64,000 nt of DNA from a virus, in the IMG/VR virus record IMGVR_UViG_3300031787_000065, positions 15,387 to 79,386 of that record; one strand, given 5' to 3'. Positions 15,729 to 46,400 of the stretch are shown piece after piece. Made by a program: the position numbers and the translations under genes. Under the pieces are notes generated by a model. That model saw only the letters and a list, made by a program, of their open reading frames with translations, had not been told where the DNA came from and made no database searches. The first letter of the stretch is position 1. The number at the start of each line of letters is the position of its first letter.

Positions 15729-18700
15729 TATTTTCCTCTAATTCGCATGTTAAGCGACTGATTTTCACTTCCTGTCCCACTGGCGGTAAATAAACTCAAA
15801 CCAGAACTAGAAACCGTAATCGGATCTGGACAATCTGTATATAGATACAGGCCAGAAGGACTACTGGATACAATATCTTTGACCGCTCCAGTGAACATTC
15901 CTATGTTATTATACACAATTGCTGAATCATCTACTTGTGTAAATATATTCATATTTTCTACTTCTGGAGGATTATTAGATAGGACATACAGGCTCATAAT
16001 ACCGCTATTTGGAGTACCATATGCATACTGACCGTTAACTGACTTAATAAATGGCCTATGCTGTATAAATCCTTTAGCTACTGGGTCTTGACCAGAAGCC
16101 TCTAAGAAAATCTGACCCCTTGTATCTGTATAGATTATTCCACTAGCATAATATGATTTATTATTAGATTGCCCATTTGTGACTTCTAAAAATACATTCG
16201 GATACCAATTTTGATCTATTTCTCCAAAGACTCTAGCTTGAATAAATGCGTCTGGACTTTGAATAGAAGGGGTTTGTTGACGCAGCATAATATCAGCCGT
16301 ATAAACTTCACCGCTATTCACTAAAGATCCAACACATAACGTATAATCAGCATCAGTTCTATTACTTCTATCTATACTAACAGCGCATCCAAACCTACCA
16401 CTATCTTCTGTAAAACCAAACATTTCTGGAGTCAATTTTTCTACTAATGACCAATTTTGGGTTTTTGTGGCCCAATCAACAATGCTATTTTCAAATAAAT
16501 ATACTGCGCCATTATCTTGTACTCCAGATTCTAAAAATTCTGTTACTATCCTAGATGGTATATAAAATTCTGGATTAAATGATTTTCTAATAAATTCTCC
16601 AGAACCATTAGTATAAATATTACTAAAATTATGATTTGGTGTGCCAACGGCTATAATATCACTAGATATATCTAAAGATATTCCAAACCTATCTGAACTT
16701 GATCCACTTACTCCTACGTGTAAACTATCTGGCCTTAGTTTTTGTATACATTCCCAAGGAGTGGTTAATCCGTGATATCCAGAGCCTTTAAAAGTTTGTT
16801 CAAAAATATATACCGCCCCAGCGCCTCCATCATATCCAACTTTTAGTCCAGAGTTAGCAGAATGATAAGCCCAATCACCAATACTGTTATTACTAAATGC
16901 TGATCCTGGCGATCCAACTACAACTTTATTTTTATGAATACTAATATCGTATCCAAATAAATCTCCCTTATATAAATTAGTAAATTTATCAAAATCTAGA
17001 TAATCATATCCTTTATCCTTCATTAACTTTGGTAAGCCGCCTTTGTAATTAGCATCAGAGTAAAGTTGACCATCTATTATACCGCTAAACTTAGCGGTAG
17101 ATCCTGCTAAATTTTGTTTTGCCACAAATGTAGCTATTTCTTGACGCTTTTTTTCTGCTCTCATTTGTTCTATAATTTCTGGATTTCCAATCTTTGGAAT
17201 TTCAGCATATGGCGTCATTGGATCTTTTACAAATGCTGGATCATATCTAGACTCATTATTATTAAACGAAGAAAATCCTAAACTAGAACTTGCCGACATG
17301 TATCCACCATTAAATAGTTTGTTAATTCCAGAATTATGTGGAGCTAATGTTAGATATTTTGCTGGACTTCCTCTTTCTGGAGAAACAATTTTAGTTATAG
17401 TGTCAAATGATCTTCCTCTATTTGCGTTTCCAAAAAATGTTTCTGGATATAAGCTACGCAAAAATGTTACAGATTCTCTAGACGCTCTATAGAATTCATC
17501 TCCCATACATTTACCCTGTACCAAAGATGAATCTGAAATTAATGTAATCCTAGAGCGATTATAACCAACATCGAAAGAAGAAAAATGTTCTATTTCTTGA
17601 GCAACAACTACTGGGCCATCGGCAATCCATTGATTATTTAAATTTTGTTCAAAACATTTGTTGCCATTACAATATTGATCATTTCTATTACTAATATGCG
17701 CAAATCTTGTACTAGTAAAAGAAAACTCTGGCTGCGCTGGAGACATTTCTATAAGTTCAAATCTATCAAACACTTTATAAGATTGAGAAGATGACGTTTT
17801 AGTATTAATGATTGGTGCTAATACGCCGGATATAGCCATTAATCTAGTGGTTTTTGGTATAAAGTCGCTAGTTATTAAAGGGAATCTATTATTATATGCA
17901 GATATATAAATAGAAATTTCACCAGATGTTGCCTGTATATCAAAATGCTTAGTAGAAGATTTGTTAATGGTTACACTGGTTAATGAGCTATCAATACCAA
18001 TGCGTTCCATAGAATAACCGTTTTCTAAAGTTATCGTAGTCATATCTGAACCGGCATATGTTGGTAGACCGTATGCGCGAGTAACATTATCTATATAGAT
18101 TCTTATTGGCTCTAATTCTGTTGGGGATTCTGATATATTTGTAAAAAATAGTCTATATCCAGAATTTGGGATTGATGGAAAAGTGACTTTGGTTATTCCA
18201 CTATCAAATCTCCAGTAACCAGCCGTATCAAGTTTAGTTTGATATATTTCTTGTGTAGAGTGGGCGAGGGGCGACAACCCATTAATCAATTTAATTGGAA
18301 TAAATTGTAAACTACTTATAGAGAAAGAATCTATTTTACTTTTTCTATCATGTCCATTGGCTATGTATGTATTTGGATTTACTCTTAATGCTCCCATTGG
18401 CACTCCTGCTGTAGCAAATTTTTCATCAGCAAATAAATATAATGGTTCTAATTTACTATTTAAAATTGATAATAATTCTGACACTAGTCTTGCTTGGGTT
18501 GATTTATTGCTATAAGTAATAATTAACTTTTTATTTGATAGCCTTAACCACGACAACAATTCTTGCAGTTGTTGAGGGCTTGGTAATTGAATTGGGTCTG
18601 CTATCCAGCAAACGTCATGACTAGGAGATATTGTTGGCACATTTAGTTCAACGCTATTGTTAGAATTAGTAAATACTTCATATAATATAGAATTAGGATT

Positions 18701-21700
18701 AGCAGAAATAAAACTGCTATGACCTGTCCATCCGCCCAATTGAGCAATTCTAGACTCGCCCCGCTTGAAAGGCTGTGATACAAGATTGATATAAAAGTAT
18801 AGATTTTTATCACCAAAACCAGACATTAATGAGCTTGAGCTTTCAGTATCGGTAGATGCTATACATACAATTCTAGAATTATTTATAAATGTTTCTTCTA
18901 CCGCAAAATAAGATAATTCTGAAACTAATTCATTACCTTTCAATACTTCTTGTTCCGATATAGCGTTTGATTGCAATAAAGCTTGCCTATCTTCAAAAGA
19001 TTCTGGAGTATAAAACTTCTGAGTACTATTGCTAGCACTGGCATTATAATTAATACTAGTATAATTAGAAGTTCCAGAGTTCCATATTATGCTAACATCA
19101 GAGGAAATATTATTCTCATCAAATAAGGCTCTTTCTGTAATAGATGTAGATATTTCTTCTCTAAATATTGCTATATTTCCAGACACTGCCGGTTTTGCTG
19201 GTATAGTAATGGTTTCAGTTACTAAAGAAGCCGCAGCTAATAAAGGAACCGGTTCTTGATTTGGTAAATCTTTATAAATTGGTGGACCATTCAATGCACA
19301 AGAGGAAGCGTCATAAGTTTTAAACAGTGTTGGCCAATTAACTGGAATAAATATGGTTTTTAATTGATCGTTTAAACATTTATGATTCCATTGCGCTCTT
19401 AAATCTCCAATGTGTTTAAGTGGTAATTCACATTTAGTATTAGCTGGTGTTGGGTCCATATACATTGATATAGTTTTATTAAAAGAATCTTGATTAGAAT
19501 CATTACAAGGCATATATAGTTCAAACTCTGGATCTTCAAGATTCATTCTAATATCCGCAACCCCATAAGCATTAAGATTTTGAGGTATTATATAACTATG
19601 AGTTGCATTGGTTGGAATAAATGATGGAATGACCTTGCCACACCCAGAAGGCATCATCAATGCTTCAGCATAATTTCTAGCTGGAACCAAAGTCATTCTA
19701 GATTTTATATGTAATAATATTTTATTAATAATTTTATTAGAATCTGCATAGGCTCCATTTTGTTCCCAAGAAGGATCATTTCCAACCAAGACCAAGTTCC
19801 TATCACCCAAAGCTAACCAAGATGAAATATTTTCTAAAACTTCTTCACTAAGGGCGTCCACTGCTGGAGTTATTATGAAAGCCAAGCCAGCATCCTCTGG
19901 TATCTTAACCTCAGAAAAATCTGTTTTTCTAAAGTTTTTATCTCTAAATATATTAGATAAATATCCAAAATGTCCAGAATCTATAGGATCGCCTATGTCT
20001 TCTTGCAAATTTCCAAATTTACCAAATTCAACAACAGAGTTGTGTGGATAATATTTTCTAGACTCTAATAGTGTTACTGATCCAGCATTTACAGTAGCAT
20101 CCCAAGAAGGAGTTATTGAAGTTGTAGATAGTAACGGTCCTCTATATCCATCGTTCTGATAATAAACTCTAGCATCTCCACCTTTATTAAAACTGTCAGT
20201 TGGGGAACCCACCGCTACAAGTCTACCGTCTTCACTAACGGCAACGCTGTATCCGCACCTTGGGGTTGGGGCAAAGTTATCTATAATAAATTCCCAATCG
20301 TCAGCATCTTTTTGCTCTCTATTTTCTGGCAATGTTAATATAATTGATTGTCCATTATAAATATTTGATAATTGATATTCTGATATGCTAAGAAATTTTC
20401 TAGCTTCTAATTTTTCAGTCGATGTTAATGAACAATATAGCATCTTATTAGCAGATACTATATTCATAGTATTTAACCACTCTTGCAAAGAAGATATCAA
20501 AGATGTATATCTTAAATTATTTCCACCAACAAGGGAGCTTTTATTATAAAGCCAAGTATGTAAAGAAGAATATAATCTATCTTTTTCTTCTTTTTTATAT
20601 TCATAAATCTGACATGCTTGGCTAATGTATGGAGATCCAATAGCAATAACTTCTGAGTTTTCACTAATCGCTACAGCATGACCAAATCTATCTGGAGTAT
20701 CGTATATAATATTTGGTGATTGTATTTCTTGAATACAATTCCAATATCCGCTCTCTTTTTCAAAAATAAACACGCTGCCACCGCTTGGTGGAGGATAATT
20801 AAACTGAGAAAGGTTAGAATTGAATGCTTCTGGTCCGACACCGGAAGTAAAAAATCTAACTTGATTTTCTTTTACTAGTCTTCCTGTGTCTAGAACATAA
20901 TCTAAAATTTTCTTACTGTTATCTATCCAATCTTCGCTATCGTCAGAAGCAAATTCTACACATTGCCCAGAAGATGGAACTCCATAAAAATCTTTTAATC
21001 CGCTGGCAAAGCTATATTCTCCAAAATAAGAAATAAAACGATTTAGTGCTGGAGAAACAGCTTCTTTGCCTAAAGATGCGCTATCATCAACATATATACC
21101 AAGAATAACTGGTATATTATTATTTAGTTTTGATTCATCATATGGATAAGCTTCGTGAAAAGCGCTCTTAATGTCATTAAATATTAAGTTTGTTCTTTCT
21201 TCGCTGAGTATACCTTGATTTCTAGCTATTCTCTTTTTTACAATATAGTTTGGCTTTGGCTCTGGGAAATCTTCTAATTGTCTATTGGAATAATCAGCAA
21301 TTGGTTCACATATAATAAGTTTAACATCAAATTTTACAGGGGGATCTGAAAAATATTGAAAGATTAAATCTTTATTCTGTATAGCTCTCTGTATCTCGTA
21401 ATGCTCTATTCTATCAAATGTATTATATCTATTTTTTTTGTAAATAATTGGAGTAAACTCGTCAGTAAATATCATTAATCCTATTTGGACGCCAGAAGAT
21501 GATAGTTCTTCAAAGCTTCTGTGCTTCCATTGTGCGCTAGGTGCCCCAACTACTAATATTTTTCTGTCACTTTCTCCTATTGACGGATCGCCACTTGATG
21601 TTACGGCTAGATCCAAAGAGTGACCAAACTCTCTTCCCTCTTGACCCACCATCCATAATCTTTCTTCTACTGGTAGAGGCATGTCAATGCCGCCTATTTT

Positions 21701-22303
21701 ATTTGTATATCTTACATTGTAGTAATCTTTAATAAAACCGGATGGAAGAGTAATAATTTCATCAAGAAGCCAAGGAGACTTATGTTTTTCTTCTGGCCAA
21801 CTATATCCAGAAGGTCTATCTTCTCTGCGATAAACGTGTACTGATCCCGTTTTCTCTAAATTAAAAGTTACCGTATTACCAGAAGCGTCAAGTTCTGAAT
21901 AGGTAATAGTATCAAATGGAGAACCAGCAGCTAAATAATTTTTCTTTACACTGACAGCTTTGCCATATTTTTGAGAATTGTGCGGAAGAGTATGTCCAGA
22001 GTAATTTACAAAATCATTAGAGCCATACTCTACTTCTGTAAACTCTAGCGGGGTGTTGATAGCTCCACCGCTACCAGTTTTGCCTTCAATTACTATAGAA
22101 TATGGAGCATTTGGTATTAACCCATCATACTTTCTAATGCCATAAAAATTTCCGCTATATCCAACTGGAGTATTAAATCCACTAGATTCAAGATTGGTGT
22201 AAGTATTTTTAGCTCTTAGAATACCACCATCAACGCACTCGCTGGGAGCGGCCCATTTTAAATCGTGTAAAACCACAGGCGTTTCAGAGCATTTTTTAGT
22301 CAT
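15728..22303 (-). CDS. Giant tail adhesin with seven FG-GAP (integrin-alpha-like) repeats and inserted domains
   Basis: Seven (F/Y/C)Gx[SA][VL]..VG[AST]P repeats. Start moved to ATG 22303 (GGAG SD, ATGA overlap). Confidence 0.65.
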   Translation of the reverse strand: MTKKCSETPVVLHDLKWAAPSECVDGGILRAKNTYTNLESSGFNTPVGYSGNFYGIRKYDGLIPNAPYSIVIEGKTGSGGAINTPLEFTEVEYGSNDFVNYSGHTLPHNSQKYGKAVSVKKNYLAAGSPFDTITYSELDASGNTVTFNLEKTGSVHVYRREDRPSGYSWPEEKHKSPWLLDEIITLPSGFIKDYYNVRYTNKIGGIDMPLPVEERLWMVGQEGREFGHSLDLAVTSSGDPSIGESDRKILVVGAPSAQWKHRSFEELSSSGVQIGLMIFTDEFTPIIYKKNRYNTFDRIEHYEIQRAIQNKDLIFQYFSDPPVKFDVKLIICEPIADYSNRQLEDFPEPKPNYIVKKRIARNQGILSEERTNLIFNDIKSAFHEAYPYDESKLNNNIPVILGIYVDDSASLGKEAVSPALNRFISYFGEYSFASGLKDFYGVPSSGQCVEFASDDSEDWIDNSKKILDYVLDTGRLVKENQVRFFTSGVGPEAFNSNLSQFNYPPPSGGSVFIFEKESGYWNCIQEIQSPNIIYDTPDRFGHAVAISENSEVIAIGSPYISQACQIYEYKKEEKDRLYSSLHTWLYNKSSLVGGNNLRYTSLISSLQEWLNTMNIVSANKMLYCSLTSTEKLEARKFLSISEYQLSNIYNGQSIILTLPENREQKDADDWEFIIDNFAPTPRCGYSVAVSEDGRLVAVGSPTDSFNKGGDARVYYQNDGYRGPLLSTTSITPSWDATVNAGSVTLLESRKYYPHNSVVEFGKFGNLQEDIGDPIDSGHFGYLSNIFRDKNFRKTDFSEVKIPEDAGLAFIITPAVDALSEEVLENISSWLALGDRNLVLVGNDPSWEQNGAYADSNKIINKILLHIKSRMTLVPARNYAEALMMPSGCGKVIPSFIPTNATHSYIIPQNLNAYGVADIRMNLEDPEFELYMPCNDSNQDSFNKTISMYMDPTPANTKCELPLKHIGDLRAQWNHKCLNDQLKTIFIPVNWPTLFKTYDASSCALNGPPIYKDLPNQEPVPLLAAASLVTETITIPAKPAVSGNIAIFREEISTSITERALFDENNISSDVSIIWNSGTSNYTSINYNASASNSTQKFYTPESFEDRQALLQSNAISEQEVLKGNELVSELSYFAVEETFINNSRIVCIASTDTESSSSLMSGFGDKNLYFYINLVSQPFKRGESRIAQLGGWTGHSSFISANPNSILYEVFTNSNNSVELNVPTISPSHDVCWIADPIQLPSPQQLQELLSWLRLSNKKLIITYSNKSTQARLVSELLSILNSKLEPLYLFADEKFATAGVPMGALRVNPNTYIANGHDRKSKIDSFSISSLQFIPIKLINGLSPLAHSTQEIYQTKLDTAGYWRFDSGITKVTFPSIPNSGYRLFFTNISESPTELEPIRIYIDNVTRAYGLPTYAGSDMTTITLENGYSMERIGIDSSLTSVTINKSSTKHFDIQATSGEISIYISAYNNRFPLITSDFIPKTTRLMAISGVLAPIINTKTSSSQSYKVFDRFELIEMSPAQPEFSFTSTRFAHISNRNDQYCNGNKCFEQNLNNQWIADGPVVVAQEIEHFSSFDVGYNRSRITLISDSSLVQGKCMGDEFYRASRESVTFLRSLYPETFFGNANRGRSFDTITKIVSPERGSPAKYLTLAPHNSGINKLFNGGYMSASSSLGFSSFNNNESRYDPAFVKDPMTPYAEIPKIGNPEIIEQMRAEKKRQEIATFVAKQNLAGSTAKFSGIIDGQLYSDANYKGGLPKLMKDKGYDYLDFDKFTNLYKGDLFGYDISIHKNKVVVGSPGSAFSNNSIGDWAYHSANSGLKVGYDGGAGAVYIFEQTFKGSGYHGLTTPWECIQKLRPDSLHVGVSGSSSDRFGISLDISSDIIAVGTPNHNFSNIYTNGSGEFIRKSFNPEFYIPSRIVTEFLESGVQDNGAVYLFENSIVDWATKTQNWSLVEKLTPEMFGFTEDSGRFGCAVSIDRSNRTDADYTLCVGSLVNSGEVYTADIMLRQQTPSIQSPDAFIQARVFGEIDQNWYPNVFLEVTNGQSNNKSYYASGIIYTDTRGQIFLEASGQDPVAKGFIQHRPFIKSVNGQYAYGTPNSGIMSLYVLSNNPPEVENMNIFTQVDDSAIVYNNIGMFTGAVKDIVSSSPSGLYLYTDCPDPITVSSSGLSLFTASGTGSENQSLNMRIRGK

Positions 22304-25300
22304 TGACAGTCTCCATAACAAATGATATCCACACCCCTAATTTCGTCATTTGCCTCTAAGAAAGCTTTATCATTATCAAGGCTTGTAATAGATTTACCAA
22401 CATTATCAGAAGTCCACATAATAACGCCTTGTTGATTAATTTGTTGATTAAAAGCTGGATAGTTTATAGTAAATAGTCCAACCGAACTTTCAATAGATTC
22501 GTATGATCCTACACATTGTAAATATAGGTTAAAATCATTACCGAAAGAAACAATATCTTTTAATCCGTCTATTACTAAATTCATAGTAGCCAATGGATAG
22601 TTATCTTCCACTGGACTTCTAGAGTTCACAAATATATTTACACTATTTAATATCGTTTCTGCTACTTTGTTACTTGCAAAAAGACCAATTTGTTGTGATT
22701 GAGATGGATAGCTTTCTTGAACATGAGTATTTAATGGTAGAATTTGATAATCAAATTTCTCATTAGCTATTAGGAACAATCCTAGTTCTGGTACAAAAGA
22801 TTCATCATTTGGAGATATTGATCCAAAATTATTATTAGTAAATGAAGAAATTCTGCCAATATTTAAGCAAGATAACCCTAAATTAGCATTTCTGTTATAC
22901 GCACTAGTGGTAAACATATTGACGGCGACATTGTGAGTATCAATAGGCTTGCCATCAGTCGAAAGGTTTAATGAAGCATATAAGGGAGATAATCCAGCGG
23001 TATGTAAGTTAATGGTATTGAGAGCTTTTTTCTCACCGCTAGATACTAAGTTGAGTATAGAATTGCTATCTTCTTTTTTCAAAATAGCGTCTTGTAACTT
23101 AACGTTCGCGGCGTGTATCTTGATAGAAGATTCAAACGGGCTTCCAGAAGGATAAACAATGTCATACTGTAAAAACATATCATTTATATCATAAGAATAA
23201 TACTTATGATCAAATTCTGATATGAGTTGATCATTATTAAAATTAGACCATTTTTCTGACCTGTCTAATATGTCTTTATGATTAAACGTACTGATTAATT
23301 TATGTATATTGCCAGAAGATCTAATGTAATACGTAGACCTATTAATAAGACCCAAGTTCTTAGTGCTGGGTCGGTTACTATCATCTTTCTTTGTTGTGTA
23401 TAAGCTTACAATAAACTTGGGGCCAATCTCGCCATCTTTCCAAATTAAATTATTAAGAGTTTGATGTTCAATTATTGTTTCTACACAAATGGCTCTTTCA
23501 GCAAAGTTGTAATCTCTTGGTAAAGCTTTGCTTACTCTTGAATTTGCAAACATAAAATTATTGTCAACATTGGACAGACTGAATCTTACAAAGTCATTTT
23601 CTATCTGTGTGTGATATGAAACGCCATCTAGGTTAATAGACGAAGGGGTTGGTAATAGATTACTTATCTGCAAATATCCGCTACCACTATGATTAAGATT
23701 ATGAACAATATAATCATCTCCATCTCTCTTTGTCATCCTAAAAAAGTCTGCTGAGAAATGTCCATAGTTGTAATCTCCTAAAAGCCACTTATCTGTATCG
23801 TCATCAATAAAATCATATAATTTATATCTATTATTTGATTGAGATCTGATGCTATCAAAAAATGATGAAACAGAAATTTGTTTATTAGATTTTATAGGAT
23901 TATTAGAAACAATATTACATCCAAAATTAGATCCATCAGATAACCCTAATTCAGATAAGAATATTGGCAAATTCACATCGTTATTGTTAATACGGCCAAT
24001 AACTATTCCAGATCCAATTTGCTCAATGTTGAATTCGCTAGATTCTGCTCTTAATATAGTAAAATTATCTATAGACTCATTATCTGTATAGATACGTAAT
24101 TTTTTAGAATTATTATCATTATATGTAATTAATAAAGAAAGTGGATATGTATATTCGCTATAGTGAGCAGTATCACTTATAGAGATATAATTATCATTTG
24201 TGTCTTTACATGTTACATTTAAGTAGCCATTGCCATATTTAATAGTTAGATTATTAGTGGTGTCTCCAGATATATTACCAAAAGTAGCGATAACGCCAGA
24301 ATTAAATAAATCATAACTATTACTAATGGCTTGATTTGATGGAGTAAATCTAATATAACATGCAAATCCATTCTTATAATTAAATGGCGTAGAGTTGTCT
24401 GTTAATCTTGGTAAATTGCCAAATCTACCCACATTGACAAATCGATCAAAACTATCGTTAATAGTAATATTAATATTTTGTTGACTATTAGTTTTTGTCC
24501 AATCTATAGTTTTATTTGGTGTTGGTTCTGAGAAAATTGATGAATTATTTAGTCTATATCCTATATTCTGATCTTGAATTTTAGCAGTAATGCCACCAAG
24601 CCACACTAGAGTATTTGTAGAATTAGAAGAGGGTGTATTGGGTATAGATTCTCTAGATATTAAATGTACTAAACCGCTTGGATATAGTAGATTAAATATT
24701 TCTTCAATATGATTAAAGTTATAATAACCGTAAGTAAATGGATTATCTGATGGTGGATTGTAAAAGTCGGCAGAAAATTGATCTGGATTAAATGGACCCC
24801 AAACAACGTTACCATCTACGCCCTTCCATCTATTAGAATAATTAGTAGTCACTCCGCTAGAATAAGAATAGGCATGTGGTAGTGGTGCCAAGCTAGAACT
24901 ATTAATATTGTGAATGATCTGTGTTCCAGAGGAACTGGATGGCAATAGCTTTAAGTTTCTTAATACAAGTTCACTAGATTGCGCTTGACCAAATGTGTGT
25001 AGCTGTAAAGCGTTAGATGGCTTGTATGTTACGACTAAATATGCTGTAGATATAGAAGCTCCACTTGGAATTGGATAAAGATCTATATAAAGATTTTCAA
25101 ACATAGGACTAATATTATACGCCCTAGATTTACCAATACTTACTTGGTCTTCGTAAATTTCTAATGGTATAACATATTCTTGAAACGAAGTAGAGGTTAC
25201 AAGTGGAGCATTATTAATAATATAATGATCACCGGCTGGATTTGTAATTTCATTTTCTTGAAAATATTGATTCTTGGTTGACAATGGATTGGTAGATATG

Positions 25301-27033: not shown

Positions 27034-30000
27034 TTACTTACCAAGAACTGTTTGTGATTTCACAATGTTACCACCGGGACCAACTCTATAATTTCCTAAT
27101 TCTTTAGCTAGTTGATCAAAGAGTTCTTTCTGTATTTGATCTTTAAGCGTAGACAAGAATGAAGCTCCTTGGAAGTTAACATTAATATTAGCTGTCTCTA
27201 GTTTAATCTGGAATTTAGTATTTTGTAAGTTTGTAATATTAGCAGATAGATCTTTATTAAATGTATTTAATGCACTAGCAAGATTGCTGACCACCTGTGG
27301 ATCAAGATTCACTGGTTGCATTCCGGTTAACATGGACATTAACTTGCCAACAAGTCCACCATCTGATAGATACTGTGTTCCACCGCGAATCTTGCCGCCA
27401 CGATTAGCATATGCGGTGCCGCTACCAGAAACATGATTTCCACTATTTATAGCTTTTAGTAGTTGTAGATTATTCTGCGTAGCCCTTCTATTTACAACAA
27501 ACTCTCCAGGAGTTAACATTGCTGGAACAGTATCTGTTCCGCGTGGAACAAACATGCCTCTACTAGCATAAACCATTCCTCCGCGAGCAAATCCAGATGC
27601 GGCCTCATTTCCGCGTTGTATAATTTCTTCTAGCTTAATATTAGCTTGAGATACAATAATCTCGGCTGTATTTAACTCCATTTGTGCCATATCTATGCCA
27701 ACCTGTCCAGTTTCACTTAAAACTCCACCAAGTTCTCGTATTCTTGCTCTCTTTCCTTCTTCTTCCGGTGTTGTTCCAGCTAGAGACTGAGCGGCGAATG
27801 GGCTTTGAATTCCTCTCGCAGCTAAAGCAGATTGAGCAGCCATTTCTCCAAGACCACCAGCGCCAGATAATTGTACTCCATATAGAGACTGAACACCAGC
27901 CTCCATTTGTCTTTGAATATCTTGGAAAGCTGACGCTAAAGCAGAGGCTCCAAATTGATTGATTAAACTTTCATTTCCAGTTGCAATAGCAGCCGTAGCA
28001 CCAACTGCTGCTTGTTGTTCAAAGAACTTTTCTATATCGCCAGAAATCAACGATTCCATTGACTGCTTTTCTAATTTATTCTTTTCTTGAATAATCTTAA
28101 GCTCATCTTGTTCTAGCTTAATTAATGATCTGATAGTATCTATTTGTGTTCTATAAGCTTTTTGTAAATCTCTTTGTTGTTCAGAAGCTTCAACGCCAGA
28201 AGCTCCTTGCAATCCGCCCTCTGTTCTTGCTCTTTCCTCATAAGTAGCTGCGCCAGCCCTGAGTTCTATATTTCTGCGTCTAAGTTCTTCTGCGCTACCA
28301 CTTCTGAAACCACTTAGACCTAGACGGTCGCCCTCAACATTAGCTTTTCCAAGAATGACCCCTCTTCTTTCCGCTCCGGTAACGGCCATGCCGCCAGCAC
28401 CAGCTTGTACTTCTCGTCCCTCTAGGTATAAATCTAATGCTTCTTGTTGTGCTTCAACTAACTTTCTTTCTGCTTCTATTCTCTTTTGAGTTAATTGAAT
28501 AATTACCTGTTCGGCCTTTTGTCTTTCTTGAGCAATTTTAATTATGCTTTCAATTTGTTTTTGTTGAGCTTCTCCTAATTTATTGCCAAATACTTCATAA
28601 TTTCCACCGATTATTTGATCAATTTCGTCATCTGTAAGATTAATACCCTCTATAGCTTTCTTAAGATTTTCCTTTGCTGGACCACCAACTAGATTAGAAA
28701 GTTCTGTAGCTAGCTCCTTTCTAAAATCTTCAGCATTTAATCCTTTAAAAGCTTTGTCTCCTATTCTTTGTCTAACATTTTCAAATGCTTGAGAATATTT
28801 TTGCTGAGCAGCAACGAAAGCGTTGGTATTATTTTCAAACTTAGACACAAACGCTGGAGAAACTCCTAATTTTTCTAAATTTTGCGCAACATTAGATACT
28901 GCATTTTTAATGTCTGTAGGATCCATAGCTTGAGCGGCACTGCTAACAGCTTCTCTTAAAAACTCTGCGTCGGAAACAAACGCTGAAGAACCAGCCTCAA
29001 AACTAGAAGCAAACCTCGCCATGCTCGCTGACATAGCTGTGGATGTTGCTTCCGCTCCACGTAAACCTAAATTCATTGCCTCAAATGATGCTTTAGCTCT
29101 AGCAACTTCTTTTTCAAGATTAAGTAATTCAGAGTTAATTTGATCTACTTGTCCCTTAAGTTGAATAAATGCTTCTTGCGCTGCTGCTGCACCCTCAGCG
29201 TCACCAGCCTTAGCTAAATTAGTTGCTTTGTCACTTAAATCTCGTAATCTTTGTAATTTATCATCTCTAGTACCAATTCCTAGGGCTTCTCTTCTCACCC
29301 GTTCTGGATCTTGACCTCTCGCCAAACCAGAACGTATAGCTGCTTGTCTGGCTGGAGACTGTAATTCAAAAGCTCTAGCTTGACCCTCATTGCTCTTTCT
29401 AATCATCTCTGCGCTTTGTTCACCAAGTTTATCGTCTCTTTCTTGTGCAGAATCAACATACCCAAAAGTGGCTGTAGCTCTAACGTCTCGGAAATATCCT
29501 CCCCAAGTTCTATTTCCATTTTTATCATATTGCCTATTTTCTGTATTAGATTGAGCAAAGTCTAAAGCTCTATTTTGTTGTATTGTGGCGGATTCAGTAG
29601 AGGTTCTAATTCTAGCTAATGCTTCTGATGCGGTTATAGTTCCTCTCTCAAAATCCTGCATCGCCGTGGTTGCTGTTTTTTGAGCTTGATCAAGAGATTT
29701 CTGCGTACTTATTGCTCCAGCTTGCGCAGCCGCCAAGTCAACAGCACTTTTTGTTGTTGTTTCAAAATTTGATGCTACTCCAACTAAGCCAGTACCCAAA
29801 CCAACTAAAGCTCCCACAGCGGTGCCAACGACAGGAATAAAACTTCCAATTGCAGCGCCAGCAGCAGTAGCTGCTACTACTCCACCAGCAGACCCCGCTC
29901 CGCGCTGAAAATTACTTTTTTCTAAAGCTACAGACTTAGCTTCTTCAACATTGCCGGATTTTATTGCTTTATTAAGTCTTCCTTCAAAATTATAAATACT

Positions 30001-33000
30001 TTCGGCTATAGCATTAAAGGCGGCTTGTGCTAGTGCCGCTCCACCAACAACTGCAAGCAAGGGGCCAGCGAGCTTTGCAAGCCCATTAGCTGTACCAGTT
30101 AATAATCCAGCTAAATCTTTACTGCCACCAACTCCTCTGACAGTATTGAAAACAGCTTGTTTTCCACCATTTCCAATTCCTCCACCGCTAAAGAAGTTCA
30201 TTAAGGCTTGTTTTTTCATGCTAACACCAAAGGCTTCTAGCGCAGTCATTGTCGCAAAAACAGTTGTTACACAACCAAGCAAAGAATGGCTTAATTTTGT
30301 CAGAGCGCCACTGCTTTCATCAACTGCTGGTAAAAATCCTTGAAGCAAGCTTGTTGCCATAGATGCAGCAAACATTTTATTATCTGATATCATCCCTCCC
30401 GATCCACGACTATTATTTACGCCAGCCGATCCGCCCACGCCGCCGCCAGTTCCGCCAGATCTAGCACCAACCGTTCCACCCACTGTAGACCACGGATTAG
30501 ACGGTCCAGTGGGGCTAGTTGGTGCAGTAGCTGGTCTACTACTTGTAGATGTTTTTGAAGAAGATGCAGAAGAATTTTTTGCTTTAGTATCATTATCAAG
30601 AGCTTTAATATAACGAGCCATAGCAGCTTGAATTTCTGCGTCTGACTTTCCTTGTCTTTGTAAAGAGCTAATATATTCAGAATATTTTAGAGCTATTTTT
30701 TCTTGAGCAGTTTGCGTTCTATTGTTTGCTATAGCATTAGCTCTAACAGAATCTACAAGAGCGGGAACAACCGTTTGTATGTTGGCAAATGCTAACCTTG
30801 TTTTAGCGGTTTCTGACCCAAGACCTCTTATTAGATCTGATACTGAAAATACTGTTTTTTCTAAAATACCAAAAATTCTAGGATTGATACCAAACGCTTG
30901 AGATCCAACGCGATCAAAAGATGGTTTTACTCCAGTTCCGGCAGTACCCGTGGCAAATCTTTGAACAACTCCACCCTTTGCATATCTACCAACCTTATTC
31001 ATACGATTTAACGCACCGTACCCAATATTCTGCGCAGATGCACGATTAATAACAAATTCACCAGGAGTTAGTAGTGCTGGAACAGTATCTGTACCAACGC
31101 CGCCACCAGTGGCAAAGCCTCGCCTTCTCTGTCTTGCGGCTAAGAAGCCCTTTTGCCTTTCGCTGCCACCCTCATACTCTCTAGTCGCTAAACCCTGCTT
31201 TTGCCTAAAAGTTTCTATGCGGTCTTGCTTTTCAAGTTTTGCCGCCATAGTTTTTTGATAAAGAGCAGAGTCTGGTGGTCTATATGAAAGTAAACCAAAC
31301 TGTTTTTCAAGATCATAATATTCTAACGCTAAGCTCTCAGCGCCAGTTCTGGGATTTATTTTTCTTTCTTGCATTAACTCCTTTAACTTGTCTAAAGTTA
31401 TGCCCTTACGCTTTGCGGCAGCTTTCATATCATCTATGCTATATCGCAAAGACCCAACAGTAAATAGTTCTGGTCCACCAACTTCGCCACCGGTTGCAAA
31501 TTTTTGTATTAAACCACCAAAATGTTTCTTTTGAATTTTTATGCCAGATAATACGCCATTATTAATAGAATTAATTATTTTACTAGAAATGCTACCGCTT
31601 CCAGCATCTCCATCTATGATTTTACTAGAATAAGACGCCTTTGCATCAGCTTGTTTTAGTTTAGAAATGCCGGTTTCATTTCCAAATAAAGCTGCTAATC
31701 TTTTTCTACTACCCTGTAAAGATGAGGATGGGAAATCAAAAACGGCATTGCCAGAAGCAGGCTTTGCGCCAGTTAAAGCGTCTATAACTCCTTCGTATAG
31801 ATATCCAGACGTTGTTCTAATAGCTCCAGCGTCAGATTGAATACGCTTGGCGGCAGACGAAAGCAAAGCATCATTACTGTCAATAGGTGGAATATCTAAT
31901 AACTTTTTAGAAGATACCTCGTTAGCAACAGACATTACTGCTTCTGATAATTTATTTTTTACATTGCTTTGAATAATTTGACTCAAAGATCCAGACTGTA
32001 TATCGCCAATAGAAGGATAAAATGTCTGTATTTGTCCAGCTTGAAGAATACCCTTGGCAGAAAATGTGTCTGGCTTGCCAGCCATTTTATCGCCCTTATT
32101 TTTATAAGGATTTACTCCATTTAATGACAATAATTTAGGATTTGTTATATCAAATGTTTTTTGTTTAAATGGTTTTAATCCGTCTGGAGTTCCTTCTTTG
32201 TTCATAAAGAAAGCTCCAATATTTCCGGGATCTACTGAAAACATTAATTCATCTTTATCTCTTCCAGATGTAAATTTCTTTTTCTTAGTTTGGCTTTCTG
32301 TTTTTTGTATTTTCTGTGCGCCTCTAGCTCTTGCCAATTTTTGAGCCATAGTCATTGGCCCGCCGTCTTCATATCTATTCTCATTCATCGCCGCCAAATT
32401 AGCAGCACCCAACTTTTGAACACTACTCTTTCGTATAACGAATTCTCCAGGACTTAACATGGCAGGAACAGTATCTCTATTACCAGTTCCGGGAACCATG
32501 CCACCCCTAGCAAAATGGTGAACTTTGCCACCCTTGTTGAAGGTTCTAGCGGAAGCTAAACCTCCACCAATCCCGCCAAGAAAAGAACCAAGACCTCTAG
32601 CTATTCTAATAGCAGCTAAAGCTCCTAATAATGGAAGTAGTGGCTTAATAGAATCAGCGAGCTTGATTAAAGATGTGGCTAAAGATAGGGCGGTATTAGC
32701 CATAATCTGGAATGTGGCGGTTTCTGTAATGCTACGAACTAACGCAAGAAATTCTTCTTTAACCTTAGTTATTCTAATGGCTAAAGCTTGTTGCGCAGTG
32801 GCAGCGTCTTGAGCTAAACTGTTTCCAGATTTTTGTGCAACATTAAGCGCGGATTGTGCTACTGAAAATTGTTGTAGTAATGGTAATACTTTACCAATCT
32901 GTCGGAACCCACCAAGTTCTTCTGCTACTCTAATAAATGTTAAATCACCCTCGCCAAGACCGGCTAATGCGCCACTCAATCTTTTCACAGCTTCAAATGG

Positions 33001-33885
33001 GCCAACGAACTTGCCTTCTAAGTCTACAAGCTCAACACCAAACTGTTTTAAGAATTCAATAGTTTGTGGTCGCTGAATACGTGTGAAAATAGTACGCAAG
33101 CCAGTACCAATACTTTCAGCACTTTCTCGCGTCGTTGCTCTTACTGAAGTAAATAATGCTAGTAATTCATTTAGATCTCCACCAGATGCCTTAAACACAC
33201 CGCCCGTTCTACGAATAACGTCAATTAAGTCTCCAGCTTCTACTGCGAACGCGCCAGCAACAGCATTAATAGACCCAAGCTGCTTTTCTAATGATCCAAC
33301 TCCCTCTTGGAACTGTGCTAGAATGGCAATAGCGCCTTCCGCCGTTTCAGTAATACTATCAAAGTTAGGAGCTAAAGCTGCCCTTGCCAATGATTTAAGT
33401 GCTACTTCAGTATCTTTAGAATTTAAACCAGCCTGTAATAGGATGGTAGACACTTCTAATAATGACTGAGAAGATACACCAAGGCCGGTTGATAAGTCAG
33501 TAATAGTACTAGTTAATTTACTAAGCTTACTGAGACTTTCGCCAGTAACCTGAGAAATTTTAACTAATTGTCTTTCAAAATCAATAGCTGTTTGTACAGC
33601 GTCACCAAGAGTGCTGGTAAATAAACCAACAGCCCTTGTGGCAATAGAGAAAGCTGCAAAACGACGAACAGATACAGCAAATGCTCGTCCCATCCTTTCC
33701 GCCGCAGTTGTGGCGTTATTGGTGTTCTGAGTTATTTGCTGTATTTGTCTTTGAGCTTGCTGCGCGCCTTGAACCTGTACATTAACGGTGACGTTATTTA
33801 ACTGGCTCTGTATTTGGCGAACAACTTGTGCTACATTATTGGGTGCTTGTAATTGTAATTGTGCGGTCAGTACAAATCTGGACAT
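27034..33885 (-). CDS. Tape measure protein
   Basis: 2283 aa, Ala/Gln-rich and helical; TP901-type N-terminal core (FERQLVKISQVTG..IGTGLRTIFTRI); hydrophobic Gly/Ala segments; follows the tail tube and chaperones. Confidence 0.9.
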   Translation of the reverse strand: MSRFVLTAQLQLQAPNNVAQVVRQIQSQLNNVTVNVQVQGAQQAQRQIQQITQNTNNATTAAERMGRAFAVSVRRFAAFSIATRAVGLFTSTLGDAVQTAIDFERQLVKISQVTGESLSKLSKLTSTITDLSTGLGVSSQSLLEVSTILLQAGLNSKDTEVALKSLARAALAPNFDSITETAEGAIAILAQFQEGVGSLEKQLGSINAVAGAFAVEAGDLIDVIRRTGGVFKASGGDLNELLALFTSVRATTRESAESIGTGLRTIFTRIQRPQTIEFLKQFGVELVDLEGKFVGPFEAVKRLSGALAGLGEGDLTFIRVAEELGGFRQIGKVLPLLQQFSVAQSALNVAQKSGNSLAQDAATAQQALAIRITKVKEEFLALVRSITETATFQIMANTALSLATSLIKLADSIKPLLPLLGALAAIRIARGLGSFLGGIGGGLASARTFNKGGKVHHFARGGMVPGTGNRDTVPAMLSPGEFVIRKSSVQKLGAANLAAMNENRYEDGGPMTMAQKLARARGAQKIQKTESQTKKKKFTSGRDKDELMFSVDPGNIGAFFMNKEGTPDGLKPFKQKTFDITNPKLLSLNGVNPYKNKGDKMAGKPDTFSAKGILQAGQIQTFYPSIGDIQSGSLSQIIQSNVKNKLSEAVMSVANEVSSKKLLDIPPIDSNDALLSSAAKRIQSDAGAIRTTSGYLYEGVIDALTGAKPASGNAVFDFPSSSLQGSRKRLAALFGNETGISKLKQADAKASYSSKIIDGDAGSGSISSKIINSINNGVLSGIKIQKKHFGGLIQKFATGGEVGGPELFTVGSLRYSIDDMKAAAKRKGITLDKLKELMQERKINPRTGAESLALEYYDLEKQFGLLSYRPPDSALYQKTMAAKLEKQDRIETFRQKQGLATREYEGGSERQKGFLAARQRRRGFATGGGVGTDTVPALLTPGEFVINRASAQNIGYGALNRMNKVGRYAKGGVVQRFATGTAGTGVKPSFDRVGSQAFGINPRIFGILEKTVFSVSDLIRGLGSETAKTRLAFANIQTVVPALVDSVRANAIANNRTQTAQEKIALKYSEYISSLQRQGKSDAEIQAAMARYIKALDNDTKAKNSSASSSKTSTSSRPATAPTSPTGPSNPWSTVGGTVGARSGGTGGGVGGSAGVNNSRGSGGMISDNKMFAASMATSLLQGFLPAVDESSGALTKLSHSLLGCVTTVFATMTALEAFGVSMKKQALMNFFSGGGIGNGGKQAVFNTVRGVGGSKDLAGLLTGTANGLAKLAGPLLAVVGGAALAQAAFNAIAESIYNFEGRLNKAIKSGNVEEAKSVALEKSNFQRGAGSAGGVVAATAAGAAIGSFIPVVGTAVGALVGLGTGLVGVASNFETTTKSAVDLAAAQAGAISTQKSLDQAQKTATTAMQDFERGTITASEALARIRTSTESATIQQNRALDFAQSNTENRQYDKNGNRTWGGYFRDVRATATFGYVDSAQERDDKLGEQSAEMIRKSNEGQARAFELQSPARQAAIRSGLARGQDPERVRREALGIGTRDDKLQRLRDLSDKATNLAKAGDAEGAAAAQEAFIQLKGQVDQINSELLNLEKEVARAKASFEAMNLGLRGAEATSTAMSASMARFASSFEAGSSAFVSDAEFLREAVSSAAQAMDPTDIKNAVSNVAQNLEKLGVSPAFVSKFENNTNAFVAAQQKYSQAFENVRQRIGDKAFKGLNAEDFRKELATELSNLVGGPAKENLKKAIEGINLTDDEIDQIIGGNYEVFGNKLGEAQQKQIESIIKIAQERQKAEQVIIQLTQKRIEAERKLVEAQQEALDLYLEGREVQAGAGGMAVTGAERRGVILGKANVEGDRLGLSGFRSGSAEELRRRNIELRAGAATYEERARTEGGLQGASGVEASEQQRDLQKAYRTQIDTIRSLIKLEQDELKIIQEKNKLEKQSMESLISGDIEKFFEQQAAVGATAAIATGNESLINQFGASALASAFQDIQRQMEAGVQSLYGVQLSGAGGLGEMAAQSALAARGIQSPFAAQSLAGTTPEEEGKRARIRELGGVLSETGQVGIDMAQMELNTAEIIVSQANIKLEEIIQRGNEAASGFARGGMVYASRGMFVPRGTDTVPAMLTPGEFVVNRRATQNNLQLLKAINSGNHVSGSGTAYANRGGKIRGGTQYLSDGGLVGKLMSMLTGMQPVNLDPQVVSNLASALNTFNKDLSANITNLQNTKFQIKLETANINVNFQGASFLSTLKDQIQKELFDQLAKELGNYRVGPGGNIVKSQTVLGK

Positions 33886-33918: not shown

Positions 33919-34761
33919 TTACTGTCCGTCGCTGGTAGATGTAGTACTAATATCTATTTTCTTACCCTTTTCGTCAATATAAGTAACGGTTGGCACATAA
34001 TTGCCAAATTCGTCTAGAATATTGCCGTCTTTGTCTACCCTTTTGCCCTCATCGTTAAGATAAAAGCCATTTCTGTCTATTCTTCGCCCCTCAGTGTCTA
34101 CGGTTTCACCCCTGTCATTTACTAAACTAAGGTTATCGTCAACAAAGTGGAACATTTTAAGGAATTTATTTTCTGGTAGCTTGGCCTCAAAATCCTTGTC
34201 TACGGCATATAGCATTGAAGCTAGATTAGTAGCGGCAGCGAAGCCAATTTCGCTATCAGCATTTTCCTTGTATTCGTCTAAATTAGAATACACCTTATTA
34301 CCATTTTCATAATAAGTACAAGCGGAAACTAGGTAATCAAATCTAGAGTTATCCGATATAGATTCGGCTGTATTTTGCTCTAGTGACATTTTCTCAGCTA
34401 TTAGGTCGCGAAGCTCATTTCTCTTGATTCTCATCTGAATAGCAATATCCTTGCCCTCTGTAGCTCTCATCTTACTATTCTTGTGAGTACCACCAACGTA
34501 CAACTTCTTTTCTAAATCGCTAATTTCTTGAACAATCTTACGCTGTTCTTCGTCCTTACCGTCATCCCAAATGCCCTGTTCTTTCATGAACTTTTCAAGC
34601 TCCTTCTTGGTCATGATGCCATCTCTGACACAATCTGTCCAAGTTTTAGCTCCAACCCTTTGGGCCTGAGATAAAATTACGTTGTTGGGCTTTTTAATAA
34701 CGATCTTAGTTTTTTCGCCGCCCACATTAACTTCTACTATTTTTTCCTTTTCCTGAGACAT
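33919..34761 (-). CDS. Putative tail assembly chaperone with C-terminal DxxG repeats
   Basis: Directly upstream of the TMP; charged helical protein; paralogous to 35127-36173. Confidence 0.55.
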   Translation of the reverse strand: MSQEKEKIVEVNVGGEKTKIVIKKPNNVILSQAQRVGAKTWTDCVRDGIMTKKELEKFMKEQGIWDDGKDEEQRKIVQEISDLEKKLYVGGTHKNSKMRATEGKDIAIQMRIKRNELRDLIAEKMSLEQNTAESISDNSRFDYLVSACTYYENGNKVYSNLDEYKENADSEIGFAAATNLASMLYAVDKDFEAKLPENKFLKMFHFVDDNLSLVNDRGETVDTEGRRIDRNGFYLNDEGKRVDKDGNILDEFGNYVPTVTYIDEKGKKIDISTTSTSDGQ

Positions 34762-34764
34762 ATT

Positions 34765-35124
34765 TTAGTCCTCCTTATTTAGTTTTTGTTGAATTACTGG
34801 CATTTTCATCGAATATCTTAACCATTCTACCTCATACTGGGCTAATTCAGCATCAATATTACGAGCTTGATTATTGCCCTTGTCTAAAATGTCTGACCTA
34901 ACCTTATTATAAAGATTTTTCATAACCTCTTGTTCTTTGGTCAATTTACCATCTGGGCTTGACCATAAAAATCCAAAGCTCTCCTCTATTGTGCTAAGAG
35001 CGCCTATCATAGTAGTCTGAATTTTCTTCTTCAAAATTTTAGATAGTCTATCTTTAGAATCAGCCTTGTATTTTGTTTCTCTAAGCTTTTTATACTCAGC
35101 GTGTTGCTTCCTAAGATCGTCCAT
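34765..35124 (-). CDS. Hypothetical helical protein (tail assembly region)
   Basis: AGGAGG SD; lies between the two chaperone-like paralogs. Confidence 0.6.
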   Translation of the reverse strand: MDDLRKQHAEYKKLRETKYKADSKDRLSKILKKKIQTTMIGALSTIEESFGFLWSSPDGKLTKEQEVMKNLYNKVRSDILDKGNNQARNIDAELAQYEVEWLRYSMKMPVIQQKLNKED

Positions 35125-43475: not shown

Positions 43476-46400
43476 TTAATTGCCAAAGTTGGGACAGGGC
43501 GCACTTTGTGTGCTAACCCATACCGGTCTATATTCATTATTTATTTTGATAGCTATTACGTAATCTCCAGCACTAATATGTAAGGTTTTATCTCTATTTA
43601 CAAGATTTATAGTACCAACATCGTACCAATGAGAATCCCTTACAATAAGATTTCCAGAGGTTGGAACTGATGGGTCTTGTGGCGAGGATATATCTCTAGA
43701 AACATTTCCTTCAATAAAAATAGAACTGAGAACACTGTTTATAGTAGAGATTTGACCACTAACTGTTGCAACTTGAGCATTCAGATTAGTTATTTGAGAA
43801 GAAGAATCTAAAGAAGTTCCATCACTGAATCTAACTGAGCCTAGTAGTCTTAAATCTCCACGAAGATCTGCGTGTGGAATGTCATTACTATCGGAGTTAT
43901 AGTTTGGAGTCTTGCTAAGCGGTGCAACGTGATGCTTAAGTGTTAAAAGATCAGCCGAAGAATTACCCTTAAATCTAAAGGATAACGTATTGTCTGGGTA
44001 ATTATTGCCACTAAAGTCTTGAACCTCTATAATATTAGCTCTAAGACCAAGGGCATCGGCATTAGTATTGTCAAATATATTTAATTTACCGCCGCTTGGT
44101 AAAGACAACTGTTTATCTTGATCGGTTGGGCCTAGGGTTCCTTGTAGTAATACCAGATTATGTTGCGCACCTAGAATAAAGTTGTAGTTTCCACTAGTAT
44201 TATTTCCTATAGAATTGTTACCTATTACAATATTATGACTTGCACTATTTATAGTGTTATTGAATCCACTGTTACCAATAACTATATTATTAGATCCAGT
44301 TGATATACTTCTAGCTGAATATGGACCAATTATCGTATTATTAGATCCAGTTATTAGCCCGCTTGCAGCATGTGAACCTATCGCGATATTAAAATCGCCA
44401 TTAGAGATAGAATATAATGATCTATGTCCTAAAGTCGTGTTACCATTAGCTCCAGATAAAATCCTAGTTCGTGGAGATTGTAAGCCGCCAAAAGTATTCT
44501 CAAAATTATCAGTGAATAACAGTCTAGCATCGTTAACGTCAAACTTATTTATAATAAGATCATGAGTATTACCGCTGCCGTCCATAAAGAATACAGACTG
44601 AGCTTGATAATCTGCAATTTTAGGTTTTACAAAAAGCTTACCGTATGTGCTTGTGGCAGTTGGTGAACCGCTATAATCTTTCAAACTAATTGCGGCTGTG
44701 TTTCTAAAGTTATCACCAAGCGTGAGCATGGCATTTGATGTGCCGCTACTGGTAAATAGTCCAACTGTATTGTTATCATACAGCCTAAAGAATACTTGCT
44801 TGCCAGAATCTTTGTATATACTTAGATCTGCAACGCCGCTAGTATTTAAATAAGCAATTTCTATACCATTATATTCATAGCTTTGTTCGCCAAACAACTG
44901 TAAGGCAGCAATAGTTTTACTCTGGTTTTCTGCCGTGGCTCTAATAATGGCGTTACCAGTTGTGCGAATATCCAAGGCGGTTTTTGGAACTATATTTTCT
45001 GATAATACTCCAAGACCATTAATTCCAAAAATACCTTGAGAACCGTCCTTCATTAAGGATATGGTATTAAACATGTTAGAAGAATTATTGTATGATCCAA
45101 TAACAAATCTGTCAGATGGTATAGACAAGTTTTGTGAGCTTGTATCAATAAATTTTAATTCAAAGCCCGTAAGAATGTCTTTATTATTATTGAGAGAATC
45201 TTTAACTCTTCGCTTAGCGCCAGTAATCATTCTTGTGGATACGCTGACGCCAGATTCTAAGGACGCTATTGAGGTCACATAGTCATTAATAATACCAGAA
45301 TTAGAAATAAAGTTTACGTTTCCAAGTCCCGCGATATTACCACTAGAACTAGAAGGTCTAGCGTCTAGTATATTTTTTCTTCCAATATATGTATTTCCGC
45401 CATCAAAAAATAGCCCGTGACAGTTATTATCATAGCTAACTATTCGATTAGTTCTTAGGTATGCTCCAGAATCAATAGCTAATGTAGTATTAGTATACCA
45501 TGAAGCTTGGGCATAACCGTTAGTATCGCACTGTAAACCAGAAGATGGTGGTAAGAATGTGAATCTATAATCTCTGCGATAACCAGTACCGCTTGTGCTT
45601 GCTATGATGCCAGCACCAAGCATTTGTTCATCAGTTATTAGAGAGCATTCATAAATTAATGGAGACTGATAAGCATAGTCATATATACTTGTTGGACCAC
45701 CGCCATCAAGAGTTTCTACAACTCCGCTAGAGGCAAGATGGATTGTTTTACAATAATATTCACAGGTTTCATAAGCATTAAATCTATTAAAAGTAGCAAC
45801 GCCATTAACTACAATATTATCAAAGTATCCACCAGACCAAGGTTGGCTTAATGTTCCAATACTTGAATTGTTATTGTTACTGACTATATTAGTATTGGTT
45901 ATAATATTTTCGTCGGCAGATAGATAAACACCGCTATTAAAAGATATATAGTTGGTATGTAAATTATTCCACCTATAACTAGAGTTACCTAGACTGCTAA
46001 TATTTCCAGATGATGGAGTGATATCACCATTAACCTCTAGAGTTCCGTTAGAGTTTAGAGTATTGGTATTGATACCAACTTTCTTAGCACCAAAATCTCC
46101 ATATAATAATGGTACTAATCCAGAACCATTAGGATTAGAGCATATGTAAGAGTCATCAACGGGGTGAGAGGCTATAAATAATTTATTAGAAGTAAATCTA
46201 TCAACATAGTATCCTGCGCCATGTCCGATAGCAACATTAAAGTTACCGATCTTATTATTTATTAAAGAGTAATTGCCAAGACCAACATTACCAAAACCGT
46301 TAGTATTGCCACCAAGAGCGTTATATCCAACAGCCGCATTATCTTCACCATACACGTTGCATGATAATGAATGAGAACCTACCGCTGTATTTCTGGAGCC

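Follow-up and report, generated by a model that had tools for sequence, protein, structure and literature searches.

The locus described here raises the question of why a tail tape measure protein should contain the same glycine-bounded module three times, and whether the parts between the copies are built to be exchanged, delivered and cut apart. The protein, P0001, is encoded in a 64,000-nucleotide stretch of the virus record IMGVR_UViG_3300031787_000065, hereafter called the window; all coordinates are positions in this window, and amino-acid (aa) numbers are those of P0001 unless another protein is named. Judging from the alignments of its relatives, modules 1 and 2 of P0001 enclose an exchangeable cassette. 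An initial annotation of the window had proposed more, namely a protein built like a polyprotein, with the modules as processing sites and the inserts between them as separately ejected effectors.

Three joint modules in one tape measure protein

P0001 is a TP901-family tail tape measure protein, as both family models are matched above their curated cut-offs (PF10145: 82.2 bits, cut-off 33.2, E 6e-23, aa 127-312; TIGR01760: 98.7 bits, cut-off 28.8, E 3e-28, aa 89-425). PF10145 was the sole match in a Pfam scan of the whole protein, and more than 2,000 homologues with sizes of 2.0-2.5 kaa (thousands of amino acids) were found.

The protein holds three copies of a joint module of ~60 aa, which is laid out as [FY]AxGG, a short loop, DTVPAxLxPGEFV, two short helices ending in N, and [FY]xxGG. 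The cores span aa 458-483 in module 1 (FARGG..DTVPAMLSPGEFV, window 32437-32514), aa 924-945 in module 2 (FATGG..DTVPALLTPGEFV, window 31051-31116) and aa 2099-2130 in module 3 (FARGG..DTVPAMLTPGEFV, window 27496-27591). All three FAxGG..GEFV modules of the initial annotation were found where it had placed them, and a profile of the copies scores P0001 at E 3e-93; the flanking motifs that it had listed were each located as well (FNKGG at aa 449, YEDGG at 505, FATGG at 796, YAKGG at 968, YANRGG at 2159 and YLSDGG at 2172). The FATGG at aa 796 belongs to a half joint, which occurs in the form FGGxIxKFAxGG in about half of the aligned relatives.

The accumulation of these motifs exceeds expectation by far, with nine occurrences of [FY]xxGG against 1.4 expected and five of [FY]AxGG against 0.18 expected, counts that were reached in 0 of 5,000 shuffles each. 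Over the core, the three copies are 53-61% identical at the nucleotide level; because this identity is so low, the copies are taken to be old and held by selection on the peptide, rather than the product of recent duplication. A Pfam scan of the three modules and the C-terminal tail yielded nothing, even at E 10. When modelled together with the cassette, the joints came out disordered, at a predicted local distance difference test score (pLDDT) of 30-45, with two short helices each.

Exchange of the cassette between modules 1 and 2

Conservation along P0001 was followed in sliding windows over 119 relatives. In all of them aa 1-500 are 70-94% identical, while aa 500-850 find any match in merely 8-74 of the 119; the block around module 2 is matched in 119/119, a second variable stretch at aa 1001-1100 by 27-33, and beyond it an identity of 35-70% is kept through to the end of P0001. 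The edges of these blocks are sharp: per-column conservation drops to ~0 immediately past the GG of YEDGG (aa 509), returns abruptly at GFATGG (aa 923) and stops again near aa 985. Three modules, with module 1 at a fixed position, are present in 118 of 120 close family members, and the spacing between modules 1 and 2 varies in the family over ~300-660 aa.

The similarities of the individual segments among relatives are uncorrelated (r ~0). In the 102 relatives with an N-terminal core at least 78% identical to that of P0001, cassette similarity is absent in 59, weak in 32 and 50% or more in 11, and for the small basic segment at aa 806-922 similarity was seen in 2 of the 119 relatives. On these comparisons the segments are swapped or have diverged each on its own, and the breakpoints coincide with the joints. 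The variability that the initial annotation had predicted between xAxGG motifs is found in the insert between modules 1 and 2, which is hypervariable or exchanged within conserved flanks that have sharp GG edges. Its picture of inserts between modules is right for this interval and wrong for that between modules 2 and 3, which by composition and conservation is an ordinary ruler or membrane-channel part, Ala-rich, of membrane and coiled-coil type, and not an insert.

Four related open reading frames (ORFs; P0345, P0346, P0357 and P0358; 527-543 aa, on contigs of 41-140 kb) stop 5-25 residues past module 1. They may be real gene splits or frameshifts; as the DNA after module 1 is A-rich, assembly frameshifts are a likely cause.

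The main globular domain of the cassette was modelled alone as aa 540-800 with AlphaFold2, using 20 diverse sequences, and reached a pLDDT of 84 and a predicted template modelling score (pTM) of 0.79. The model comprises a small beta sandwich, a long helical hairpin and an alpha/beta part, and its core was also confident when modelled together with both joints. Residues G694, E698, D717, K749 and K769 are invariant in the 20 diverse sequences (alignment A4), with D or E two positions before K749; in the model, E698 lies on a helix, D717 at the start of a strand and K749 on a strand. This order of E, D and (D/E)xK is that of a PD-(D/E)xK nuclease, which makes the modelled cassette a nuclease candidate. 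Searches for a corresponding fold or family gave no match: Foldseek with the 261-aa cassette model returned nothing at E <=0.001 in PDB or BFVD, a wide VIA search was dominated by helical-hairpin look-alikes (best Z 5.9), look-alikes in the ESM Atlas were uninformative (best score 0.80), and Pfam found no family even at E 10. A 551-aa model of module 1, cassette and module 2 fared alike, without a significant Foldseek match in PDB and with VIA hairpin look-alikes of Z <=6. Stand-alone homologues of the cassette (111-478 aa) were not detected at E 0.001. The proposal that the protein is a delivery cassette for several effectors can accordingly be kept in part: a single candidate domain exists, which is exchangeable, and its nuclease nature was not confirmed by fold or Pfam searches.

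Effector matches in relatives are at most weak and below threshold. In relative P0116, modules 1 and 2 are separated by an insert of 850 aa, in which aa 947-1161 weakly match ADP-ribosyltransferase exoenzyme (PF03496, E 0.0025), and a second member of alignment A2 matches ADP-ribosyltransferase exoenzyme at 9e-5.

Spread of the module and the question of cutting

A profile of the three copies was searched against a library of 1.84 billion representative proteins. The module was found in 19,127 proteins at E <=0.001 and in 948 at E <=1e-30. The top matches are giants of 2.1-7.9 kaa with 3-11 copies, and 133 of the top 144 giant multi-module representatives have the N-terminal core of P0001 at 50-57% identity. 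In these 144 the first module starts at ~aa 450-600, directly after the N-terminal core, and the last ends at a median of 137 aa before the C-terminus. Conservation across 754 instances is 80-99% for the module core DTVPAMLTPGEFV and for the GG pairs. Between the modules of the giants, Lys-rich segments prevail; the exception is one Ala-rich segment of ~1,100-1,200 aa, which resembles the interval between modules 2 and 3 of P0001 in size and composition. That the giants are tandem duplications of one ruler unit was considered and rejected, as their inter-module segments are mutually dissimilar. A Pfam scan of two giants, P0125 and P0140, gave PF10145 only.

Among sequences of solved structures, the matches of the three-copy profile include Douge gp16, at E 2e-7 with copies at aa 959-1012 and 1410-1464, and lambda gpH, at E 0.027 with one copy at aa 729-783. 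With a broader hidden Markov model (HMM) built from the 754 instances, used in a local search of six proteins, lambda gpH was matched at E 5e-11, a Nitrincola phage protein with one near-C-terminal copy and Imvubu gp21 with two copies. Isolated phages with the module in their tape measure proteins include those of Mycobacterium, Gordonia, Streptomyces, Rhodococcus, Nitrincola, Vibrio and Ralstonia, and T4-like cyanophages have it in a virion protein of the hub cluster. On its conservation across these proteins, the module is an ancient and strongly constrained element. Despite its presence in ~19,000 protein clusters, it matches none of the Pfam or NCBIfam models, and a literature search for the motif with tape measure proteins retrieved no published description.

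The carriers in T4-like cyanophages are S-SCSM1 gp159 (locus L084, 2192-5044) and Bellamy gp12 (locus L085, 3044-5443), a virion protein of 800-950 aa. The S-SCSM1 gene sits between a baseplate hub assembly gene and the annotated tape measure gene; that of Bellamy has a baseplate hub assembly gene on one side, and the next gene encodes a hypothetical protein.

Lambda gpH provides the nearest precedent for a cut. The element named in the initial annotation is present at aa 728-788 of gpH (FATGG..GEFV..YATGG) and is matched by the module profile. As in P0001, the same module is preceded by a hydrophobic Gly-rich stretch (~aa 690-727) and followed by a short C-terminal anchor; gpH differs in having one copy, no insert and an N-terminal core of another tape measure family, whereas P0001 has three copies, two of which bracket the exchangeable cassette. 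Module 3, which ends 106 aa from the C-terminus of P0001, suits the position of the lambda-type single near-C-terminal element, 70-200 aa before the C-terminus. A piece of ~14 kDa, gpHC, is cut off gpH, and three or more copies of it are retained in the tail tip of the virion, with aa 818-842 as a coil resting on gpI (PMC12617516, PMC10721106). The removal of about 100 C-terminal residues given in the initial annotation thus needs correction, to a ~14-kDa piece that remains in the virion. Calculated from the fragment sizes (13-15 kDa for the C-terminal fragment or 79 kDa for gpH*), the cut falls at ~aa 710-736, either where the hydrophobic Gly-rich stretch ends or at the FATGG opening the module, and thus, as implied by fragment size, at the N-terminal border of the gpH module. 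In the lambda record, gpK is annotated as a peptidase of the C40 family.

T5 pb2 is cut after R1127, with a hydrophobic stretch on one side and a peptidase motif on the other, and the tail retains the two pieces (PMC10038345). Its sequence there (NC_005859, aa 1120-1140) reads SFVPR before the cut and AEGGMMYPG after it, to which ARGGMVPG at modules 1 and 3 of P0001 and an FVPRG nearly invariant in module 3 of the family bear a likeness. Comparable to what is proposed here for P0001 is that a post-assembly cut parts a hydrophobic portion of pb2 from an enzyme-bearing C-terminal piece (PMC10038345); pb2 differs in that it has a single cut and no GEFV core that the module HMMs detect at E 100. 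As a carrier of the module pb2 was rejected, since the HMMs gave no match even at that threshold and only the short AxGGM..PG motif is common to both.

Enzyme domains adjoin the module in other proteins. Imvubu gp21 (L087 727-7110) has an Rpf-like transglycosylase domain at aa 1271-1344, between modules at aa 980-1034 and 1748-1814, and in the cyanomyovirus protein S-SCSM1 gp159 a glucosaminidase domain directly follows the module. Douge gp16 and Imvubu gp21 are like P0001 in having more than one internal module (two each), with the transglycosylase of Imvubu between them, and unlike it in their N-terminal core, which is of another family, and in the cargo, a cell-wall hydrolase in Imvubu against the nuclease-like candidate in P0001. 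An Rpf-like transglycosylase motif in mycobacteriophage tape measure proteins was reportedly noted by Pedulla in 2003 and by Piuri and Hatfull in 2006, both listed among the references of PMC13277306.

What was known before is the occasional enzyme domain in tape measure proteins, and that those of lambda and T5 are cut once. New is a single conserved joint that occurs 3-11 times per protein in a large uncultured group and marks the points of cassette exchange. The closest published concepts are tape measure maturation in lambda and T5, the mycobacteriophage motifs, the fusion in P23-45, and polyvalent proteins. The latter (PMC5512222) are comparable to P0001 in that unrelated domains are joined in one chain, delivered with the DNA, mosaic and sometimes self-processed. 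Of their hallmark domains (MPTase, ArdC-N and others) Pfam found none in P0001, which has one candidate effector domain and not the two or more recognisable conflict-related effector domains that define them; tape measure proteins are mentioned 0 times by Iyer et al. 2017 (PMC5512222).

We consider the chances about even that the joints are post-assembly breakpoints in a tape measure protein with an exchangeable, delivered cassette. P0001 consists of fixed parts linked by three joints: a TP901-type N-terminal core, a ruler part of membrane-type and helical regions, and a presumed C-terminal anchor. Joints 1 and 2 enclose the exchangeable, Lys-rich globular cassette together with the rare small basic segment. 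The whole chain would measure the tail during assembly and sit in the tail lumen, and from this position the cassette would leave before the DNA and enter the envelope or the cell of the host. After assembly the joints would act as flexible, glycine-bounded breakpoints, with the chain nicked at or beside AxGG, as happens once in lambda gpH and in T5 pb2, and the nicked pieces leaving and refolding separately. As the joints border a fast-changing insert, an exchangeable passenger domain is probably brought into the host by the tail, and a processing role for the joints is plausible; that all three joints are cut, that effectors are set free, and what activity the cassette has are matters of inference. 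Long phage tails may in this way act as reconfigurable protein-delivery devices, and the joint would be a concrete candidate for the processing signal of the lambda gpH cut, a question that has stood for 50 years.

Several observations weigh against a cut at the joints or against a delivered effector. The lambda cut site is known from fragment size alone (PMC12617516), and the resemblance to T5 is confined to a motif of 8 residues, which is missed by the module HMMs. No protease was found by Pfam or PHROGs in P0001 or its ten neighbours, and neither Prok-JAB nor Peptidase_C48 by Pfam in the record or four complete relatives; these negatives rest on Pfam/PHROGs matching, in which the absence of a match is not proof of absence. 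The module shows no obvious catalytic residue, and the lambda and Douge copies are without the D-T of DTVP. Modules split over two reading frames were seen in 0 of 80 related IMG/VR loci. The disorder of the modules in the models fits a linker equally as well as a cut site. For the cassette as a nuclease, Pfam, Foldseek, VIA and the Atlas gave no support from fold or family. The Douge tail of 269.6 nm fits the whole 1,699-aa two-module protein; its module-bounded parts are therefore in the ruler during assembly, and any cut must come after assembly. P23-45 gp96, finally, carries an RNA polymerase domain and is full length in virions (PMC10770324). Like P0001 it is a giant tape measure protein, and it brings a host-directed enzyme into the cell (PMC10770324); unlike in P0001, the enzyme domain is N-terminal.

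The Douge tail length and the intact gp96 would be explained directly if the joints were never cut, an explanation that we regard as a real possibility, though not the favoured one. The joints would then be structural elements of a tape measure protein that stays whole, with the cassette acting while tethered to it. They might be hinges with glycine borders, or dock a chaperone, the tube wall or the hub, and so help to thread bulky non-helical inserts in the lumen and let the chain refold into a trans-envelope channel. The flexibility of the modelled module, with its two short helices only, the protease searches without a match, and the finding of the modules within one frame in more than 60 related loci fit such a hinge equally. 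Conservation of 13 consecutive residues at 80-99% exceeds, in contrast, what a plain hinge needs, the sole lambda copy lies at the border of a known cut, and T5 pb2 is cut directly ahead of its AxGGM..PG motif.

The strongest form of the proposal, in which tail-lumen proteins in general have the GG..GEFV joint as a self-contained processing signal and every copy is cut at [FY]|AxGG, so that these proteins are true structural polyproteins, seems to us unlikely. Cutting would be by the joint's own chemistry or by an unrecognised tail or host protease. Were every joint cut, the tail would be loaded with a changeable set of free effectors, and the cuts in lambda gpH and T5 pb2 would be explained alike.

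It is quite improbable that the modules are kept mainly as DNA recombination linkers for cassette exchange, without a function in the protein. The similarity breakpoints at the module edges and the independent assortment of the segments are what such linkers would produce; yet the peptide core is kept in copies of low nucleotide identity, and it is conserved from lambda through actinophages to cyanomyoviruses, because of which selection is seen to act on the protein. That cassettes are exchanged at the joints is more readily explained as a result of this peptide conservation. Least probable, and by a long way from the breakpoints preferred here, is a small cell-wall- or envelope-binding element with a LysM-like strand-helix-helix-strand fold, whose copies would give avidity and hold ejected tail-lumen proteins at peptidoglycan or a host membrane protein: the helix pattern G-E-F-V..G...L...N resembles LysM spacing, one LysM receptor kinase was matched at E 1.3 and the module adjoins peptidoglycan hydrolase domains in Imvubu gp21 and S-SCSM1 gp159, but no copy has a Pfam LysM match at E 10, the model of the module is of low confidence and the kinase match is at chance level.

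Further features, the virus and neighbouring genes

The features of P0001 are compiled in Table 1. In the hydrophobic glycine-zipper region, hydropathy peaks lie at aa 1201-1221, 1268-1294 and 1332-1374, and matches to Gly-zipper_Omp were obtained in 4 of 20 relatives. The C-terminal tail is presumed to be an anchor because its position is like that of the trimeric C-terminal coils of lambda (aa 818-842, PMC10721106), Douge (aa 1658-1699, PMC13033339) and T5 (PMC10038345). A homotrimer prediction for module 3 and the C-terminal tail (alignment A5, three copies), run without controls, scored 0.01.

Table 1. Position and basis of the features of the tape measure protein gene P0001 in the window
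Feature	Position	Strand	Basis
Tape measure protein gene P0001, 2,283 aa	27034..33885	minus	ORF, PF10145, TIGR01760, homologues
N-terminal tape measure core, aa 1-394	32704..33885	minus	70-94% identical in 119 relatives
Hydrophobic Ala/Gly-rich stretch, aa 395-446, directly ahead of module 1	32548..32703	minus	composition, hydropathy
Joint module 1, aa 447-509: FNKGG, FARGG, DTVPAMLSPGEFV, two short helices, YEDGG	32359..32547	minus	profile and motifs
Variable cassette, main globular domain, aa 540-790	31516..32268	minus	alignment A4, AlphaFold2 model
Half joint, aa 788-805, HFGG..FATGG without the GEFV part	31471..31524	minus	motif
Small basic helical segment, aa 806-922, FATGG at both borders	31120..31470	minus	predicted helical, low to middling confidence
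Joint module 2, aa 923-985	30931..31119	minus	motifs and conservation edges
Second variable stretch and Ser/Thr/Pro/Gly low-complexity linker, aa 986-1165	30391..30930	minus	relative matches, sequence
Hydrophobic glycine-zipper (membrane-type) region, aa 1166-1420	29626..30390	minus	hydropathy
Ala/Gln/Glu-rich ruler part, aa 1421-2097, helical by composition	27595..29625	minus	composition; 35-70% identity
Joint module 3, aa 2098-2177: FARGG, FVPRG, DTVPAMLTPGEFV, YANRGG, YLSDGG; lambda-like copy near C-terminus	27355..27594	minus	
C-terminal tail, aa 2178-2283, presumed tail-tip anchor	27037..27354	minus	position only; moderately conserved

The virus record comprises 79 kb in IMG/VR, where it is rated ~50% complete; among isolated phages none is closely related to it at the DNA level, and its complete relatives have genomes of 163-174 kb. 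As no sheath gene is recognisable in these complete relatives, the tail is likely to be long and non-contractile, and at Douge's ratio of ~0.16 nm per residue its predicted length is roughly 350 nm.

The P0001 gene lies within one minus-strand tail block, with structural ORFs on one side and giant ORFs without family on the other; PHROGs and Pfam matched almost nothing in the neighbouring genes. Just upstream of P0001 lie two ORFs (33919-34761 and 34765-35124), at the usual place of tail assembly chaperone genes. About half of the related loci have as their longest ORF not the tape measure gene but a + strand neighbour of it, of very uniform size (~2,640-2,690 aa) and without the joint module. 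The second gene past P0001, a 2,197-aa ORF (15728-22321, minus strand), contains FG-GAP repeats (PF14312, E 4e-13), and the other giant ORFs near it (1,576, 1,585 and 1,202 aa) have no family match. A 335-aa ORF (47495-48502, minus strand) matches a major head protein PHROG weakly (E 2.5e-4), and a 1,069-aa ORF (43476-46685, minus strand) matches virion structural and tail-spike PHROGs at E 1e-27.

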